A stretch of DNA of 32,000 nt from Methanococcus maripaludis (GCF_002945325.1 NZ_CP026606.1:420001-452000), one strand, 5' to 3'. Numbered from the stretch's first letter, positions 2,589 to 30,147 are shown. Numbers and translations: made by a program. Notes: generated from the sequence alone by a model not told the origin.

Positions 2589-2842
2589 GATATCCCATTT
2601 AAAACGGATTATGGTAAATACAAAATATAATGATATTCAAGTTTGAAATTCAATGTATATATAATAAATACAAATGAATCCGACCAAAACATAAATATTA
2701 TCAAAATAAAAAAAATCGAGTCTTATAATGAACTAAATATGCTTAAACAAGTTTATATTTGCTATTTAACTTTTTAAACCAGAATTTAACCTAAATTTAT
2801 TAAAAAATCGGAAAATAAGGGTTAATTAAATAAAAAATTAAG

Positions 2843-3454
2843 CTAATCTTTTTCTTTTACAAAAATCAGCGGAAATATAATATCGCTTGTACAACAAGGA
2901 ATCCAGACTGCAATGAACAGGAATACAAATATTTCAAAGTACATTAAAAAATTCAATCCTGTCCCAAGAGCCATTATTATGTGAAAAAGCGATGCTGCAG
3001 TACTTAAAAATACGTGTCCCGAATGAGGTATTTTTGTAAATGGTTTAAAATATGCTAAAACTATTCCAAAGATCGCTAACAAATTTACAAGCCAAAATTC
3101 TTCAATAAATCCAATATGGGCTCCACGATTTGGCAAATCTAAAATAATTTCCCCGATATATGGGATCAAAGAGTCACTAATCGTTGCAATAAATAAAGAG
3201 CCAACATATCCTATTAAAAATAATGTAAGAAAACCTTTGTAACCATTGATACTGCTTTTCTTGTGCAAAAGATACATCGAAGTTGTAGTAAATGCACTTA
3301 AAAATACATGTATAGGGTGAAGTGTATAAAATATAGAATAAGATTCACTAAACGAAATTCCATTAAAAATAATCAATAATACCATACCAAAAATGGCCCC
3401 GAGTGCCGTAAATGGCATATGTTCCCCAAGTTCTTTAATAATAAGATTAAACAT
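2843..3454 (-). CDS. Integral membrane protein (about 6 TM), His-containing motifs, function unknown
   Basis: 203-aa ORF with strongly hydrophobic segments throughout and repeated HxxH/HPIH-like motifs. No family assigned with confidence. Confidence 0.7.
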   Translation of the reverse strand: MFNLIIKELGEHMPFTALGAIFGMVLLIIFNGISFSESYSIFYTLHPIHVFLSAFTTTSMYLLHKKSSINGYKGFLTLFLIGYVGSLFIATISDSLIPYIGEIILDLPNRGAHIGFIEEFWLVNLLAIFGIVLAYFKPFTKIPHSGHVFLSTAASLFHIIMALGTGLNFLMYFEIFVFLFIAVWIPCCTSDIIFPLIFVKEKD

Positions 3455-7858: not shown

Positions 7859-9328
7859 TTAACCCCATATTGCAATTTTTACCAGGACTATAAATGCTGC
7901 AAGAAGATCTAATACCAAAAGTGCCCCAAAAAGTATTAATCCAATTTTTAATGGTTTTTCAAGACCTGAAAAACTATCAATAAGTCCTCGAATGGGCTCA
8001 ATTGTAGTTTTTACTTCTGAAATTGTTAATTTCGTTTCATCAAGCGTGTCATTTAGTGAATCGAGAAGTTTATCTATTCTGGGCTGTTCTTCTTCTTTTA
8101 CGCCTTTTAATATTTCATAAACTTCATCCAGAGTTTTTGGAATTACTCCGGGTTCATTTTCTGTTTTTATATTATTTAATTCAACAATTCTATCCAACCT
8201 ATACATTTCTCGCTCAAAATAATCTTTTTGTGATTTTAAGAGATTTTTGGCTCTTTGAATTGTTTCTTCTTTTGATCTTGTGCAAGATTTTACCCTTGAA
8301 ACGTCTGAATTTGTTTTAAATGAGTTTGAATCAATTGAAAATTTCTTTCCAAGATTTACAACGTTTTCGTAAGTTGAAGCTGAAATAACTTTTGGAACAT
8401 TTTGTGTTGCCACATTAGTTTTTGAAGTCTTTTGAACGTTAATATTTTCTAATAGCTCAGTTTTTTCAATAGCTTTTTCATTTAAGTTGATTGAATCTTC
8501 TTTTTGAACATCTGTTTTTAAAATTACATCAGGCGGATTTACAACCTCAATGTCTATTTCAAAGTTTGGTTTTAACCGTTCCTCAAATTTTTGAATCTGT
8601 AATTCTTTTTTTCCAAAACGTTCTGAAAAGTATTCTTTATCACTTTTTAGCTTTTCTATTTTGTAATTATACCAGGGAAGTTTTAACTTAAGTTCTTCTT
8701 CTTTTTTATTTACTACAAACAATTTTTTTACTTCTTCAAGTAATTCTTCAGTTTTTAAAAGATTTTCGTCAACAGAATCCATTATATTTTCGATTTTGGG
8801 CTGTTCTAATGTGTTAAATCGTTCTATGCTTTCATTTATGTTGTATATACTTTCAGAAATAATTCCTGGTTCAGTATATAATATTTCATAAATTTCTTTT
8901 TTCAGCCGATATCTTCGCAATACAAGATCCATTATTTCATGAATTCGGTCAAAATTAAAGAAATCAGAAAAATTAGAACCAAAATTGTAGTCTGAAGAAT
9001 CAACGCCTAAATTTTGCATTTTTTCTTCTATTTCTGAAAGTTCTGCCTGAAGTTCTTCGAGCCGTTCTTTTTCTTCATCCCATAAATCGTCAGTTTCTCT
9101 TGGAATCAGTCTTTTTATTACAATTAACTTTTCTGTTTCGTGAAGCAGTGATTCTAACTGTTCACCAACTTCCTGAACAGTAATCCCGATTGATGCAAGT
9201 GCTATTGCAGCTTCTGCAGCGGCTTCCTCCGCAGTACTTGCCGCATTCCCAATCTTTTTACCAAGGCCATATAATCCAACGGTTGCAATATTTAATGACG
9301 TATCCTTTATTTTACTCCATAACCCCAT
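7859..9328 (-). CDS. Large coiled-coil protein with a C-terminal transmembrane anchor (489 aa)
   Basis: Long E/K/L-rich heptad-like stretches and a C-terminal TM (LKIGLILFGALLVLDLLAAFIVLVKIAIWG). No catalytic motif seen. Confidence 0.7.
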   Translation of the reverse strand: MGLWSKIKDTSLNIATVGLYGLGKKIGNAASTAEEAAAEAAIALASIGITVQEVGEQLESLLHETEKLIVIKRLIPRETDDLWDEEKERLEELQAELSEIEEKMQNLGVDSSDYNFGSNFSDFFNFDRIHEIMDLVLRRYRLKKEIYEILYTEPGIISESIYNINESIERFNTLEQPKIENIMDSVDENLLKTEELLEEVKKLFVVNKKEEELKLKLPWYNYKIEKLKSDKEYFSERFGKKELQIQKFEERLKPNFEIDIEVVNPPDVILKTDVQKEDSINLNEKAIEKTELLENINVQKTSKTNVATQNVPKVISASTYENVVNLGKKFSIDSNSFKTNSDVSRVKSCTRSKEETIQRAKNLLKSQKDYFEREMYRLDRIVELNNIKTENEPGVIPKTLDEVYEILKGVKEEEQPRIDKLLDSLNDTLDETKLTISEVKTTIEPIRGLIDSFSGLEKPLKIGLILFGALLVLDLLAAFIVLVKIAIWG

Positions 9329-15493: not shown

Positions 15494-16078
15494 GTGCAGA
15501 TTGTGAGAAAAATCATACTTGGAATATTAATGGTTCTTGGACTTGTTTCAGTATCCTTTGCCGCATCAGAATTTATGGATATGGGAAAACAAGGACCCAG
15601 TATACTGTGTCCAATCGACTTCCAGAACATGACGACTGAAGAGATTCAGGATGCTCTTGAAGAACAGCTTGCTGATCTTGAAGATGAATATGCTTCTTGT
15701 GAAGACGAACAATTAAGGACTAGAATTCAGGAAAGAATCGAGATGACTCAAGGTTTGATTGATGATCCTGAAAAACTCGAAGAAATGATAACTAATATGC
15801 CTGAAGGAATGCCTGAAAGAAAAGAAAATGGTTTTAAAATCGACTTCCAGAACATGACGACTGAAGAGATTCAGGATGCTCTTGAAGAACAGCTTGCTGA
15901 TCTTGAAGATGAATATGCTTCTTGTGAAGACGAACAATTAAGGACTAGAATTCAGGAAAGAATCGAGATGACTCAAGGTTTGATTGATGATCCTGAAAAA
16001 CTCGAAGAAATGATAACTAATATGCCTGAAGGAATGCCTGAAAGAAAAGGAGAATGCCAAAAAGCTAACTTTGAATAA
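15494..16078 (+). CDS. Secreted acidic protein made of two identical 70-aa repeats
   Basis: Signal peptide (ILGILMVLGLVSVSFA). The start is either GTG 15494 or GTG 15503; the latter has GGTG 6 nt upstream. The body contains an exact internal duplication. Confidence 0.7.
   Translation: MQIVRKIILGILMVLGLVSVSFAASEFMDMGKQGPSILCPIDFQNMTTEEIQDALEEQLADLEDEYASCEDEQLRTRIQERIEMTQGLIDDPEKLEEMITNMPEGMPERKENGFKIDFQNMTTEEIQDALEEQLADLEDEYASCEDEQLRTRIQERIEMTQGLIDDPEKLEEMITNMPEGMPERKGECQKANFE
15613..16049 (+). repeat. Exact 212-nt direct repeat (15613-15824 and 15838-16049, period 225 nt) inside the CDS
   Basis: The two copies read identically base for base and are separated by 13 nt. The duplication is in frame (75 codons). 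Confidence 0.95.
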
Positions 16079-23138: not shown

Positions 23139-23371
23139 AATTAGCCTCCTTTTCCCATAAATTTGATAATAAATACTTTATTTTTGTTTTTAGCAGGTAT
23201 TTATTGCTTATTTAACATAATTATCGGCGGAGAATTATATATGTTTTTTGATTTGTTTCAACATTTTCAACCAAGAATATCGATTTTAATCATTTTCAGT
23301 ATGTTTTTTAGTTGGAAGAAACGTCCTGTTAGGCCATATTTCGGAGTGGTAATTAAATTAGCAATTTCCAT

Positions 23372-23416
23372 ATTTTGTCAGATTAACTGCGTTAGATTAA
23401 TTATTTGGAAAAGAAG
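23372..23416 (+). repeat. Direct repeat copy A (45 nt; 25-nt exact core TTAGATTAATTATTTGGAAAAGAAG)
   Basis: Position-by-position comparison with 27604-27648 gives 40/45 identity. The last 25 nt are identical. Confidence 0.85.
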
Positions 23417-23429
23417 AAGTTAAGAACAG

Positions 23430-24759: not shown

Positions 24760-24967
24760 ATTTTCTCACCCAAATATTTACCTAATCATGAGTAAATAAA
24801 ATACAATTATTTACTTATCTATAGGTAAAGGTATTTAAATGTTTTAGAAATTGGCGATATTTGAACTATCAATACACTAAAAACAAAGTTTTTTGTGTTA
24901 ATAAATCTTTGATTTATATAATCTATCAAAATGTAATGAATTGATAGAAAATGATAGTTGATAATTT

Positions 24968-26257
24968 ATGAAACTTCCAGAAATTCCAAAATATTCAAAA
25001 GAAAACATTGATATTGCAATTAAATACGTACCAAATCGGGAAATAATTGATATTGTCCAAAAATACAATGAAAAGTATCTTCATTTTAATGAATTAAAAC
25101 ATAAAACACTTCCGATAGATCCAGTTATTATCTGGACAATAATGAAAATGTTTAGAATGAATAATTTAAAATCAATACATTTTGGAAAATGGACATTTAA
25201 TTATTCTTTAATCGATGAATTCATTGAAAAGCTGCATACCCTCGATAAATCGGCATCTGGAAACCTTTCAACTGCACTCGAATCTATTCCAAGTGAAAAA
25301 GAACGATATATTATAGACTCATTGATGGAAGAAGCAATTGCTTCAAGCCAGATTGAAGGGGCAGTAACTACGAGAAAAGTAGCGAAGGAAATGCTAAAAA
25401 AAGGCCAAAAACCAAAAAATAAAGATCAAAAAATGATCCTTAATAATTACAATACGATGAAATACATCCTTGAAATAAAAAATAAAGAATTTTCTATTTC
25501 TGAAATATTAAAAATTCATAAAATTATCACTGATGGAACGCTTGAAGATCCCGAATTTGTTGGAAAATTTAGAAAAAACAATGAAATTGCAGTTTATTCT
25601 ACTGATGGAACACTGCTTCACGAACCTCCAAAATACGAGCTGGTTGAATCATTAATGAATAATTTATGTGAATTTTCAAATTCAAAAGACAAATTCATCC
25701 ATCCAATAATAAAGGGAATCATAATCCACTTTTTAATTGGCTATATTCACCCATTCAACGATGGAAACGGCATAACTGCAAGATCCCTATTTTACTGGTA
25801 CCTTTTAAAGAACGATTACTGGTTATTTGAATATATGGCAATTTCAAGAGTAATTAATGGATCAAAAGGACAGTATCGGGACGCTTATTTAAAAACGGAA
25901 TCAGATACTTTTTATAAAGACGATAAAGGAGATTTAACATATTTTATAAAATACAACCTGGAATGCATCTGCAGATCCCTTGATGAAATATTGGATTATT
26001 TAAGTAAAAAACAGGTTGAACAAAAAGAAGTTCTAAATCTTATAAATAAATCAGAAGATCTTAATTTGCGTCAGGCCGAGATTTTAAAAGAGATTTTAAA
26101 GACTCCTGAAAACATAATTACAATTAAAGAAATCGTTACAACATATAACGTAGCTTACGCAACCGGAAGGGCAGATTTAAACCATCTTGTGGAATTAGGA
26201 TATCTGGAAAAGAAAAAAGCTGGAAAAGAATTTGTGTATGTTTTGAATAAAAAGTGA
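24968..26257 (+). CDS. Fic-domain protein (class II, intrinsic inhibitory helix) with a C-terminal winged-helix
   Basis: The Fic motif is HPFNDGNGITAR, against the canonical HxFx(D/E)GNGRxxR. An upstream SSQIEG matches the (S/T)xxxE(G/N) inhibitory motif. The C-terminus is wHTH-like (YNVAYATGRADLNHLVELGYLEKKK). Confidence 0.9.
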   Translation: MKLPEIPKYSKENIDIAIKYVPNREIIDIVQKYNEKYLHFNELKHKTLPIDPVIIWTIMKMFRMNNLKSIHFGKWTFNYSLIDEFIEKLHTLDKSASGNLSTALESIPSEKERYIIDSLMEEAIASSQIEGAVTTRKVAKEMLKKGQKPKNKDQKMILNNYNTMKYILEIKNKEFSISEILKIHKIITDGTLEDPEFVGKFRKNNEIAVYSTDGTLLHEPPKYELVESLMNNLCEFSNSKDKFIHPIIKGIIIHFLIGYIHPFNDGNGITARSLFYWYLLKNDYWLFEYMAISRVINGSKGQYRDAYLKTESDTFYKDDKGDLTYFIKYNLECICRSLDEILDYLSKKQVEQKEVLNLINKSEDLNLRQAEILKEILKTPENIITIKEIVTTYNVAYATGRADLNHLVELGYLEKKKAGKEFVYVLNKK

Positions 26258-27530: not shown

Positions 27531-27603
27531 AAATAAATTTTATAAACGACACAACAGGGCTATTTTTAAAATTTTAAACAAACACATCACCAACATTTTC
27601 GTA

Positions 27604-27648
27604 ATTTTGTTAGATCAACGGTTTTAGATTAATTATTTGGAAAAGAAG
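27604..27648 (+). repeat. Direct repeat copy B (45 nt), same orientation as copy A
   Basis: 40/45 identity with 23372-23416, with the exact core at 27624-27648. It ends 43 nt upstream of the 27692 start codon. Confidence 0.85.
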
Positions 27649-27691
27649 TAAGAAAGATGAATCTTGTGAATTCATAATATCATTAGGACTC

Positions 27692-28192
27692 ATGACTAGA
27701 AAAGGGAATTTCTTGGCATTGAAAATCAAAAAAGTAAAATCCGTTCCAGAATTCTGGATAATTTCTGCACATGAATCTGAACTTCAATTTGAGATCCCTG
27801 AAAACGAATGGGACGATGAATATTCTGAATTCTATATTGATATTGAACCATGGTTAGAAAATGACTTTGATCCAGATAAACTAACGATTGGAAAACATAG
27901 GGCCGTCCAATTTTTAAAAATGGAAAATGAAAATGACGGATTTCGTAAATTGGAAAATTACTTGGATGAATATGGAGATATGATCCTAAATTTAGATATT
28001 CCTGCATTTAACGGAATTTTAGCTTTGAAAATAACAAAAAACGATTCTGAAGACCTCTACAAAATAACAATTCCTGATCGGGATGAATTCATTGAAAATA
28101 TGAATATTGAATGGGACGATGGAAAAGTTTATGGGTTAAATCAAAATCTAAAAAGATTATTTAAAAACGTATTCTCTTCATCCAAAGAATAG
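27692..28192 (+). CDS. Acidic hypothetical protein (166 aa)
   Basis: Clean ORF and the first gene of a tightly packed same-strand series. About 35 Asp+Glu by my count. No known motif. Confidence 0.65.
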   Translation: MTRKGNFLALKIKKVKSVPEFWIISAHESELQFEIPENEWDDEYSEFYIDIEPWLENDFDPDKLTIGKHRAVQFLKMENENDGFRKLENYLDEYGDMILNLDIPAFNGILALKITKNDSEDLYKITIPDRDEFIENMNIEWDDGKVYGLNQNLKRLFKNVFSSSKE

Positions 28193-28218: not shown

Positions 28219-28464
28219 ATGACACAACAACAATTCTATTTAGTAAAAGATGTTGATTCAAGAGCTTTAAGGTATTACCTTCACAAACTCGAAAATTTAA
28301 CATCTATAAATCCTGAAAGATTAAAAAATCTTGTTGAATCAAAAAAGAATTACAAAAGAACCATTAAACTATCAAAACAAGAGCAAAATATCACTGATAA
28401 ATTTGGAAAAGCCACAAACATTCTTGTAAATTATTTAATTATCGAGGCAGAGCAGAATGAATGA
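28219..28464 (+). CDS. Small hypothetical protein (81 aa), possibly ribbon-helix-helix-like at the C-terminus
   Basis: Strong SD AGGTGGGATC lies directly upstream. The C-terminal KRTIKLSKQEQNITDKFGKATNILVNYLIIEAE has a strand-helix-helix look (weak inference). The stop codon is the first TGA of the repeat tract. Confidence 0.6.
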   Translation: MTQQQFYLVKDVDSRALRYYLHKLENLTSINPERLKNLVESKKNYKRTIKLSKQEQNITDKFGKATNILVNYLIIEAEQNE

Positions 28465-28652
28465 ATGAATGAATGAATGAATGAATGAATGAATGAATGA
28501 ATGAATGAATGAATGAATGAATGAATGAATGAATGAATGAATGAATGAATGAATGAATGAATGAATGAATGAATGAATGAATGAATGAATGAATGAATGA
28601 ATGAATGAATGAATGAATGAATGAATGAATGAATGAATGAATGAATGAATGA
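28455..28652. repeat. Perfect tetranucleotide microsatellite (GAAT)n = (ATGA)49, 198 nt
   Basis: Read directly: uninterrupted 4-nt periodicity from 28455 to 28652 with no variant unit. Confidence 0.99.
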
Positions 28653-29469
28653 TTTTAAAAATAAACTGCTCCTAAAACCTAAAAAAGAAACTCAAAAAGA
28701 ACCTCCTGAAGTTAAAAAGTGGCTTAACAAATTCAGGGAAGAACGGGAGTTTGATGGAATTAAATCTTCAACGATTGGAAATGACATTACTAGATTGAAA
28801 GTATTTTACCAACTCATGAGGCTTGACAATTTTAAAGATTTTAAGGATGAAAGCCAAGAGCGTAAAAGATTTTCAGGTTTTGAAATAAAGCACTATGACG
28901 CAATATCTTCAGACCTTTTAAACGACATTATGAACGTAATTATTGAAAGTAAAAGCAGAACAAAAATTAGGGATGCAACAATTATCCGGTTTTTGTGGGA
29001 TTCAGAATGCAGAATTTCTGAGGCATTGAACTTAACTTATGGGGACTCAGACCTTGAAGAAGGAACCTTTGTTTTAAGAAATACAAAAGGTAAAGCAGAA
29101 AGAACCGTTGTATGCTCAACAGACACGTTAGAAGTTCTAAACTATTATGTCCAATACAATATCAAAAAAGGATCTAAAGATAGAGTCTTTCAAAATTCTA
29201 ATGGCGAACCTATCGGAAGGGGATGGATAGGGGAAATATTTAGAAAAGCTGTCGATAAATTAAAAAAAGATGGCAAAATTCCTGCAAATAGAAAAATCGT
29301 TGTGCATTCTTTAAGACATGGACGAGCTGTTGATTTACTTGAAAAAGGTCAGCCAATAGATATTGTAAAAGAATATTTAGGGCATAAATCACTTGATACA
29401 ACCCTATTCTATTCTCATTCAAAGGAAAGGAAGGAAAAAATGATTAAAAACATTCAAAAAATACTATGA
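28645..29469 (+). CDS. Tyrosine recombinase / integrase (phage integrase family)
   Basis: N-terminal SAM-like core-binding region. The catalytic residues are present: R in ECRISEAL, H-x-x-R in LRHGRAV, LGH, and Y in TTLFYSH. The ATG lies inside the microsatellite and there is no SD upstream. Confidence 0.9.
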   Translation: MNDFKNKLLLKPKKETQKEPPEVKKWLNKFREEREFDGIKSSTIGNDITRLKVFYQLMRLDNFKDFKDESQERKRFSGFEIKHYDAISSDLLNDIMNVIIESKSRTKIRDATIIRFLWDSECRISEALNLTYGDSDLEEGTFVLRNTKGKAERTVVCSTDTLEVLNYYVQYNIKKGSKDRVFQNSNGEPIGRGWIGEIFRKAVDKLKKDGKIPANRKIVVHSLRHGRAVDLLEKGQPIDIVKEYLGHKSLDTTLFYSHSKERKEKMIKNIQKIL

Positions 29470-29478
29470 GGGGAAAAT

Positions 29479-30147
29479 ATGAAAGAAATGAAGTTTATAG
29501 ACTCAAATACCCATCCTTTTTTACAGGAAGGTACAAAATACTACGAAGTGAATTATGAATACATTATATTTTCGGGTATCAAACTTTCAGACATGGACAT
29601 TCTTTTAGATGGTAAAAAATTAGAAGAACAAGGTTTTATCCTTAAAGATATGAACAAATACGATTTACCAGTTATGTATGTCGATAATATCGAGGAAATT
29701 ATGGCCAAATTTGACGAAAAATACCACTATGCATTTTACGGAAAAGAGTTATCCCATATACTTACATTGGAAAATTTAAAAGATATGGCCGTTGAAATTA
29801 GTATGGATCCGCCATTTTGTGATAAAATGGTTCCAATAAAAGTTTCAGAACTGATAGAAAAAAACCAAAAACTTGAAGATATCTTGGAAATTGGAATAAG
29901 TGGAAAAGATTTAAACACTTTAAATCTTACAGTATGGGATCTTGATCATGCACTTGTAGACGGCATTGGATTTAAAGATCTGGATCATTTTGGAGTAAAA
30001 ATGGCCGATGTATGGTTGAGATTAAATGTTAACCTATTTAACGATATAAATAGGAAAGTCGAGGGTTTAAAAAGCGTTTATGTCCCAGATGAAGATTTAA
30101 ATATGGACCTTTTAGAAAGGATTAATACTTCTCAAGATTCAAATTAA
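29479..30147 (+). CDS. Hypothetical protein (222 aa)
   Basis: Clean ORF with GAGGGG as SD, starting 9 nt after the integrase stop. No motif recognised. Confidence 0.65.
   Translation: MKEMKFIDSNTHPFLQEGTKYYEVNYEYIIFSGIKLSDMDILLDGKKLEEQGFILKDMNKYDLPVMYVDNIEEIMAKFDEKYHYAFYGKELSHILTLENLKDMAVEISMDPPFCDKMVPIKVSELIEKNQKLEDILEIGISGKDLNTLNLTVWDLDHALVDGIGFKDLDHFGVKMADVWLRLNVNLFNDINRKVEGLKSVYVPDEDLNMDLLERINTSQDSN

Follow-up and report, generated by a model that had tools for sequence, protein, structure and literature searches.

Long perfect tetranucleotide repeats form the basis of established contingency loci in Haemophilus influenzae and Neisseria, with the phase-variable lic, mod and hgp genes as examples (reviewed in PMC11868660). 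Coupling of neighbouring genes by termination-reinitiation was analyzed in Haloferax volcanii and Escherichia coli, where its efficiency was found to be 40-60% lower at a spacing of 13-14 nt and close to zero at 22-23 nt (PMC10666635). With respect to the genus Methanococcus, the intergenic regions of M. voltae and M. aeolicus were shown to be enriched in AT-rich short tandem repeats, which were attributed to local replication errors (PMC4060949, PMC6749651); a tendency of Methanococcus to form such arrays is thus already known. Additionally, a gene encoding a DUF2540 protein and an adjacent integrase gene represent the first two genes in the genome of MFTV1, a temperate head-tailed virus of Methanocaldococcus fervens. 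At the locus described here, a DUF2540 gene and an integrase gene of a Methanococcus strain are separated by a long tetranucleotide tract.

The window analyzed in this study comprises 32,000 nt of the chromosome of Methanococcus maripaludis (NZ_CP026606.1, positions 420001-452000). By means of exact look-ups, the proteins encoded in the window were identified as M. maripaludis AVB75872-AVB75894. The respective sequence, CP026606, belongs to the type strain JJ (DSM 2067) and was assembled with Unicycler from MinION R9.5 and MiSeq v3 reads (PMC5887029). The relevant features are listed below, with coordinates counted from the first nucleotide of the window; the loci used for comparison are L013 and L014 (M. 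maripaludis GCA_014207325.1), L015 (M. vannielii SB) and L009 (a metagenome contig).

27692-28192, plus strand: ORF of 166 aa, the 5'-truncated remnant of a 233-aa gene of the element, with 96% identity to residues 68-233 of the L013 protein
28219-28464, plus strand: DUF2540 gene of 81 aa (PF10802, E-value 8e-27; 2efv_A, E-value 3e-17), the conserved upstream partner of the integrase gene
28444-28447, plus strand: SD-like motif GAGG, located by comparing the junctions of L009, L013, L014 and L015 with the window; putative Shine-Dalgarno function
28455-28652, no strand assigned: perfect (GAAT)49.5 microsatellite, exceeding by 47 units (188 nt) the ancestral GAATGAATGA that is seen in L013/L014, L015 and L009
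28462-28464, plus strand: TGA stop codon of the DUF2540 gene, identical in sequence and position with the second TGA of the tract
28465-28644, plus strand: 180-nt spacer that can be read as 15 consecutive ATG-AAT-GAA-TGA mini-ORFs in frame; each of the two remaining frames contains an equivalent ladder
28645-29469, plus strand: tyrosine recombinase/integrase gene, 274 aa (AVB75893.1; PF00589, E-value 2.9e-29), with an internally deleted core-binding domain
28798-28807, plus strand: deletion scar, a single AAAGTATTTT where the DNA alignment places two copies 144 nt apart in L013; 48 codons lost
29005-29007, plus strand: codon GAA for E121, two residues before the catalytic R123; GGA in L013 and glycine in at least 90% of the family
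29479-30147, plus strand: gene of 222 aa downstream of the integrase gene, with its own GAGGGG motif and 50% identity to the L013 counterpart

Tandem Repeats Finder described the tract as a repeat of period 4 with 49.5 copies, 100% matches and no indels, and a regular-expression search resolved it into (GAAT)49 at positions 28455-28650 followed by GA. A 20-mer of the GAAT unit yielded 46 matches, compared with 0.00 matches expected from 100 dinucleotide-preserving shuffles, and no further microsatellite of at least 14 nt was detected in the 32-kb window. The DUF2540 ORF ends within the tract with the codons CAG AAT GAA TGA, and the integrase gene starts with ATG AAT GAT, directly adjoining an in-frame TGA. 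The ATG at position 28645 is regarded as the true start codon, because the homologous integrases begin with MND(F/L)KNKLLLKP in the alignment. The distance between both genes (28645-28465 = 180) equals 15 x 12 nt. Since an ATG and a TGA are present in every unit of the tract, the DUF2540 and integrase ORFs are both intact at any number of units. The 25 nt preceding the integrase ATG are pure repeat and contain no SD-like motif. In all these respects the sequence-only reading proved to be accurate: it had pointed to the perfect 198-nt tract that supplies the stop codon of the 81-aa ORF and the start codon of the integrase gene, to the 15 in-frame mini-ORFs between them, to an integrase gene devoid of a Shine-Dalgarno motif that is followed by a gene with a GAGGGG motif of its own, and to the survival of both ORFs upon gain or loss of a unit. 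The archaeal host that it had assumed turned out to be M. maripaludis JJ.

The tract itself provided no indication of a structured RNA, as no significant folding was predicted (z-score of 0.37 versus shuffles). The pure repeat contains no T run either. When the window was scanned for tRNAs and Rfam families, neither a tRNA target nor a known RNA was detected nearby. A minus-strand ORF running through the tract was considered as well and rejected, as this strand contains no start codon and no ORF of at least 40 aa at that position. The (ATTC)n sequence of the minus strand specifies Ile-His-Ser-Phe repeats that are stop-free in all frames and also lack ATG, GTG and TTG.

The exact number of 49.5 units depends on one hybrid MinION and MiSeq assembly generated with Unicycler, in which R9.5 nanopore reads bridge the short-read graph. 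An artefact of assembly or library, with a true tract that is chimeric or much shorter, could also be read into the independent JGI draft GCA_014207315.1, which left the tract unresolved. This draft matches the window with 100% identity along 2.8 kb of the left flank and 3.4 kb of the right flank, and it contains 91 Ns within the tract, followed by an odd ATAA at the edge of the gap and by 25.5 pure units to the right of it. These 25.5 unbroken units on one side of the gap nevertheless argue against an artefact, as does the occurrence of an expanded repeat at exactly the same junction in the data of two sequencing centres and of at least five further read sets. Moreover, the Logan short-read contigs (k=31; DRR680971-4 and SRR12395639) all terminate within the repeat, after about 30 nt, whichever side they enter from, which would not be caused by a 10-nt ancestral junction, whereas the L014 contig from the strain without the expansion assembles uninterrupted across it. 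An expansion at this junction is therefore genuine and supported by several read sets. The doubt about an assembly artefact that accompanied the sequence-only reading can thus be confined to the exact unit count, and an artefactual tract retains next to no probability. In the JGI scaffold (L001, positions 2807-3008) the tract measures 202 nt, with an estimated size of the N gap, compared with 198 nt in the window; this difference and the stray ATAA could reflect the gap-size estimate along with a contig-end error, or a real heterogeneity in length or sequence.

The nearest alleles of the locus, present in L013/L014, L015 and L009, encode an 81-aa DUF2540 protein by a gene whose last 8 nt are shared with the integrase gene (...gagcagaATGAATGAttt/cct...). 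The overlap string in these alleles is cagAATGAATGAttt, and the junction GAATGAATGA corresponds to 2.5 repeat units. The flanks of the junction in L013 are identical to those in strain JJ, which differs by the 47 additional units. The overlap comprises 14 nt in Methanothermococcus Ax23, 17 nt in S2-like M. maripaludis and 20 nt in both M. jannaschii (MJ0366/MJ0367) and the virus MFTV1. Accordingly, a stop/start overlap of 8-20 nt was found in all eight relatives examined that possess an upstream DUF2540 gene, and strain JJ is the sole case with a gap (+180 nt), so that its two genes lack the adjoining stop and start codons of a coupled pair. With regard to the number of units, two states were seen, namely 2.5 (L009 and L013-L015) and about 49.5 (JJ), and no intermediate or expanded allele was revealed when metagenome and viral contigs were searched for three or more units adjoining one of the flanks. 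A profile search of the genome contigs with the integrase alignment returned two loci only, and exact-protein look-ups proved to be more productive. The gene coordinates of overlapping DUF2540/integrase pairs among the relatives are 1242-1520/1501-2493 in L040, 1245-1517/1501-2487 in L041 and 281-550/531-1523 in L042 (MFTV1). Stretches of at least 12 GAAT units were detected in viral contigs of IMG/VR (L021-L039; 19 stretches on 18 contigs, including several giant-virus MAGs) and are unrelated to the DUF2540/integrase locus. By comparison of the available alleles, the tract of strain JJ is a derived expansion of the overlap string, which among the alleles compared was seen only in this strain.

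The unexpanded alleles contain the GAGG motif within the DUF2540 gene, 9 nt before the integrase ATG. In strain JJ, this motif is followed at a distance of 9 nt by the ATG that opens the tract (position 28457), and the integrase ATG lies 197 nt downstream of it.

The DUF2540 protein of strain JJ represents a full-length member of its family, with the PF10802 match covering residues 6-77 of 81, and it is homologous to M. jannaschii MJ0366, a protein of solved structure (PDB 2EFV). Its gene differs from that of L013 by 3 nt, resulting in one conservative amino-acid change. The tight linkage of both genes suggests that the DUF2540 protein may act as a partner of the integrase, for instance as a directionality or DNA-binding factor; a literature search for a link between MJ0366 and an integrase yielded no report. 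An MCM helicase gene precedes the DUF2540 gene in the loci of two relatives. Integrases of the same family with about 55% identity are encoded in L010 (M. maripaludis GCA_013761135.1) and L011 (a second copy in M. vannielii SB), where the genes located upstream are small ORFs (49-135 aa) without a DUF2540 call, at a gap of 33-122 nt. This integrase family thus also includes members that lack a DUF2540 partner. In view of its homology to the first two genes of MFTV1, the DUF2540-integrase pair represents the module for integration used by a family of viruses and integrated elements of the Methanococcales.

The integrase of strain JJ has kept its catalytic domain with all six catalytic residues (R123, K148, H221, R224, H247 and Y256), and its best NCBIfam match is archaeal XerA, below the cut-off. 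The core-binding domain is not intact, as no PF13495 match was obtained for the JJ protein. Among 58 homologues (E-value of at most 1e-20), 57 are 301-340 aa in length and contain PF13495, the exception being a 215-aa fragment from a 2-kb contig. The shorter length of the JJ integrase is due to an in-frame deletion of 144 nt between the 10-nt direct repeats AAAGTATTTT, visible as a 48-aa gap in the protein alignment, and a deletion between direct repeats is most readily interpreted as a slippage-type event. The deletion eliminates roughly one half of the core-binding domain; in the model of the intact protein, the 48 missing residues include half of the helix 41-61, all of the helix 71-84 and most of the helix 89-105. 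AlphaFold models of the intact and the JJ integrase, computed with the same 54 homologues, showed a five-helix N-domain at residues 21-121 with pLDDT values of 90-96 for the intact allele and an N-region with values of 45-72 for the JJ protein; in both models, the greater part of the catalytic domain reached at least 90. Apart from indels, the integrase genes of JJ and L013 differ by three substitutions in 825 aligned nucleotides, leading to Q56R, which adjoins the deletion, to one synonymous change and to G121E, which falls into the box of the catalytic Arg-I. A chimeric integrase gene, considered in view of BLAST identities of 100% before and 83.5% after the deletion, was rejected since only 3 of 825 nt differ and the low identity stems from the downstream gene. 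The divergence of about 0.4% between JJ and L013 implies a recent origin, on the JJ branch, of the expansion as well as of the deletion and G121E. Some tyrosine recombinases function without a large N-domain, and the JJ integrase, with its open ORF and six catalytic residues, might possibly retain residual activity. No expression data were found for the integrase gene, and nothing on it was present in the supplementary material of the transcriptome/proteome study on selenium in strain JJ.

Signs of loss are also apparent in the remainder of the element. DNA homology to L013 begins only at position 27641 of the window, and the genes encoding a KAP-NTPase and proteins of 163 aa and 410 aa, which are located upstream in L013 as well as in L015, are absent from JJ. 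The JJ element is thus truncated on its left side. No family match was obtained for the neighbouring ORFs of the island.

Several repeats were observed in the surroundings. A 64-nt direct repeat with 80% identity (23362-23425 and 27594-27657) flanks a 4.2-kb segment with the gene order AAA_14/DUF4143 ATPase - Fic - DUF2798. Its second copy coincides with the onset of homology to L013 at position 27641, inside the truncated 233-aa gene, and the repeat may mark the site of a recombination or insertion event by which the element lost its left part. A 29-nt direct repeat with one mismatch, atctatcaaaatgtaa(t/a)gaattgataga, is present at 24920-24948 of the window, upstream of the Fic gene, at 16028-16056 of L016 and at 10059-10087 of L013. 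The L016 copy lies about 1 kb past the right end of the window, to the right of the JJ island, and the L013 copy is likewise located to the right of the island; the repeat is a candidate att-like or hot-spot sequence. In L017, a locus of a third M. maripaludis strain (GCA_013761225.1), the region is shared through the identical Fic protein, with 99.3% DNA identity over 9.4 kb, and from position 9290 onwards (position 26257 of the window) genes for an MFS transporter, a DUF2202 protein, a hydrolase and a TetR protein replace the DUF2798/DUF2540/integrase island. The region is thus a variable hot spot of the chromosome. Elsewhere in the window, a tandem duplication with 100% identity (positions 15613-16049; 225-nt unit, 1.9 copies) was noticed within the ORF 15494-16078, which encodes 194 aa and, apart from a marginal ATP-cone match, has no Pfam match above the curated cut-off. 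This duplication is either another recent duplication or slippage event in JJ or an assembly duplication.

With a probability of roughly 0.7, we consider the tract to be the result of a recent slippage expansion that was seeded by the 8-nt overlap within a decaying integration module of the prophage type, and hence a mutational by-product and not an evolved switch. The ancestral start codon of the integrase gene would have been the ATG inside the terminal string of the DUF2540 gene (cagaATGAATGAttt), 9 nt after the GAGG motif, which is the arrangement expected for coupling by termination-reinitiation. The 8-base stop/start overlap ATGAATGA would already have represented two ATGA units, to which replication slippage would have added 47 units in strain JJ. 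Since each unit carries its own stop and its own start codon, a gain or loss of units cannot be counteracted by selection acting on the two proteins. As a consequence of the expansion, initiation at the integrase ATG would have to occur 180 nt from the DUF2540 stop codon and 197 nt from the former SD motif, behind 47 decoy ATGs that each open a Met-Asn-Glu-stop mini-ORF. Translation of the integrase would be uncoupled in this way and probably cut to a trickle, with the tract serving as a translational insulator. The deletion, G121E and the missing left part suggest that the module came under relaxed selection either before or after the expansion. The length of the tract is expected to be unstable. 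As 2.5 units are below the usual thresholds for slippage, an increase from 2.5 to 49.5 perfect units without intermediates would be extreme for a neutral process in a prokaryote, and a contribution of some drive or selection is possible.

The main competing explanation had been put forward by the sequence-only reading, which interpreted the tract as a contingency locus where slippage shifts the register on the ladder of mini-ORFs and thereby switches or tunes integrase translation and the mobility of the element. A long and perfect tract of identical, slippable units should indeed be hypermutable, the spacing of 15 x 12 nt places the present allele in register, and the ancestral overlap corresponds to a coupling arrangement that makes linked translation plausible. 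In Haloferax, moreover, an SD motif is not indispensable for termination-reinitiation (PMC6728339). The underlying idea that the tract acts on stop/start coupling is sound as far as an interference is concerned, given the overlaps of 8-20 nt in the relatives, but its extension to an evolved slippage switch or rheostat found no support. The tract is confined to one strain, and close as well as distant relatives possess overlaps and no tract; contingency loci retain tracts of varying unit number across strains, and for the present locus two states are known (2.5 and about 49.5 units), with no intermediate alleles in public metagenome and viral contigs. A functional gene behind a maintained tract is not what the locus presents either, as the integrase carries the 48-aa deletion in its core-binding domain together with G121E and belongs to a truncated element. 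A change in unit number leaves both ORFs as they are and alters no reading frame or promoter geometry, so that the register of reinitiation would be the sole route to an effect. Furthermore, cells of M. maripaludis contain up to about 55 genome copies (PMC9430280), so that a slip in one copy would not switch the cell and any single-copy switch would be blurred.

The proposed switch also relied on the rule that one in three repeat-number classes is in register, which is possible in principle on a ladder of abutting mini-ORFs but is not the sole outcome. Each TGA of the tract overlaps one ATG in the form ATGA, which is the commonest coupling overlap, and abuts another, with the result that restarts advance by either two or three units. 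In a toy Markov model of serial reinitiation across the tract, the 1-in-3 rule was obtained only when restarts took place exclusively at the abutting ATG. Exclusive ATGA restarts resulted in a 1-in-2 rule, under which the present allele is in register too, and mixed restarts eliminated any phase dependence and left attenuation only. The 15-23 serial restarts required to cross the tract would reduce the flow of ribosomes in the model: with an efficiency of 50% per step, a fraction of 1e-5 to 1e-7 of the input remains, and with 90% a fraction of about 0.05-0.2. On balance, a contingency locus is quite improbable. The graded version, in which the length of the tract tunes the ribosome flow from the DUF2540 gene to the integrase start via serial reinitiation and thereby acts as a rheostat on a partly active recombinase, is very improbable. 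If true, SSR-based phase or rheostat control would thereby be described for the first time in Archaea, and its operation via a stop/start ladder instead of frame or promoter spacing would likewise be without precedent. An adaptive, essentially one-way off-mutation was considered as well, by which the shut-off of the integrase would have been selected for keeping a useful island stably in the chromosome of strain JJ. The loss of the SD motif and of coupling next to an untouched DUF2540 gene (one amino-acid change versus L013) and the accumulation of three independent disabling changes of the integrase within about 0.4% divergence are consistent with such a silencing or domestication, but the deletion or G121E alone would have been enough, making 47 units superfluous. 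The build-up of lesions is equally predicted by neutral decay, and the cargo of the island, whose ORFs lack family matches, has no known benefit. Silencing by selection is thus rather unlikely, and an accidental expansion in a decaying module remains our preferred interpretation.

As a regulatory device the tract is probably unimportant, since the evidence points to decay and not to design. It provides, however, a clean natural example of how a self-repeating stop/start overlap such as ATGAATGA can seed a microsatellite that is unseen by purifying selection on the ORFs. Being located in the type strain of a tractable methanogen, it offers a ready reporter for microsatellite instability, for gene conversion among about 55 genome copies and for the repair of 4-nt loops in archaea. 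It is also a natural test bed for termination-reinitiation in 15 to 23 steps, as chains of mini-ORFs were left open by the work on Haloferax and E. coli; to our knowledge, a chain of three-codon mini-ORFs has nowhere been tested experimentally. With respect to genome annotation, AVB75893.1 should be treated as a deleted integrase, and it should be considered that draft assemblies of JJ break at the tract.

Like the contingency loci of Haemophilus and Neisseria, the JJ locus has a long perfect array of 4-nt units where a gene begins, and the same slippage and hypermutability are expected. The tracts of these bacteria are located inside an ORF or within the promoter spacing, where the number of units sets the frame or the strength of expression, whereas the tract of strain JJ is intergenic and contains stop codons in three frames. 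Likewise, the bacterial tracts are polymorphic across strains, occur at many loci per genome and control functional genes, whereas the JJ tract is present in one strain of a highly polyploid archaeon, with 2.5 units in its neighbours, and the gene that follows it is damaged. The ancestral 8-nt overlap with the intragenic GAGG motif fits the described coupling by termination-reinitiation (Huber et al. 2019, PMC6728339; 2023, PMC10666635), and each repeat unit in JJ recreates the ATGA and TGA-ATG junctions. In the latter study, however, coupling vanished at about 20 nt, and the partners in JJ are 180 nt apart. The repeats of M. voltae and M. aeolicus (PMC4060949; PMC6749651) resemble the JJ tract as AT-rich, short-unit, non-coding arrays of the same genus, but the surveys reported units of 6-11 nt or satellites derived from (ATT)n and neither a 4-nt tract of 49 units nor an array originating from a stop/start overlap. 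Comparable with regard to gene content are MFTV1 (MT711370.1; genes 281-550 and 531-1523) and the MJ0366/MJ0367 pair, which comprise the same two families in the same order as in JJ, and the intact L013 integrase (P0060) is 59% identical to that of MFTV1. In these relatives the two genes overlap by 20 nt and the integrases are about 330 aa in length, whereas strain JJ combines a 180-nt repeat spacer with an integrase of 274 aa that carries an internal deletion.
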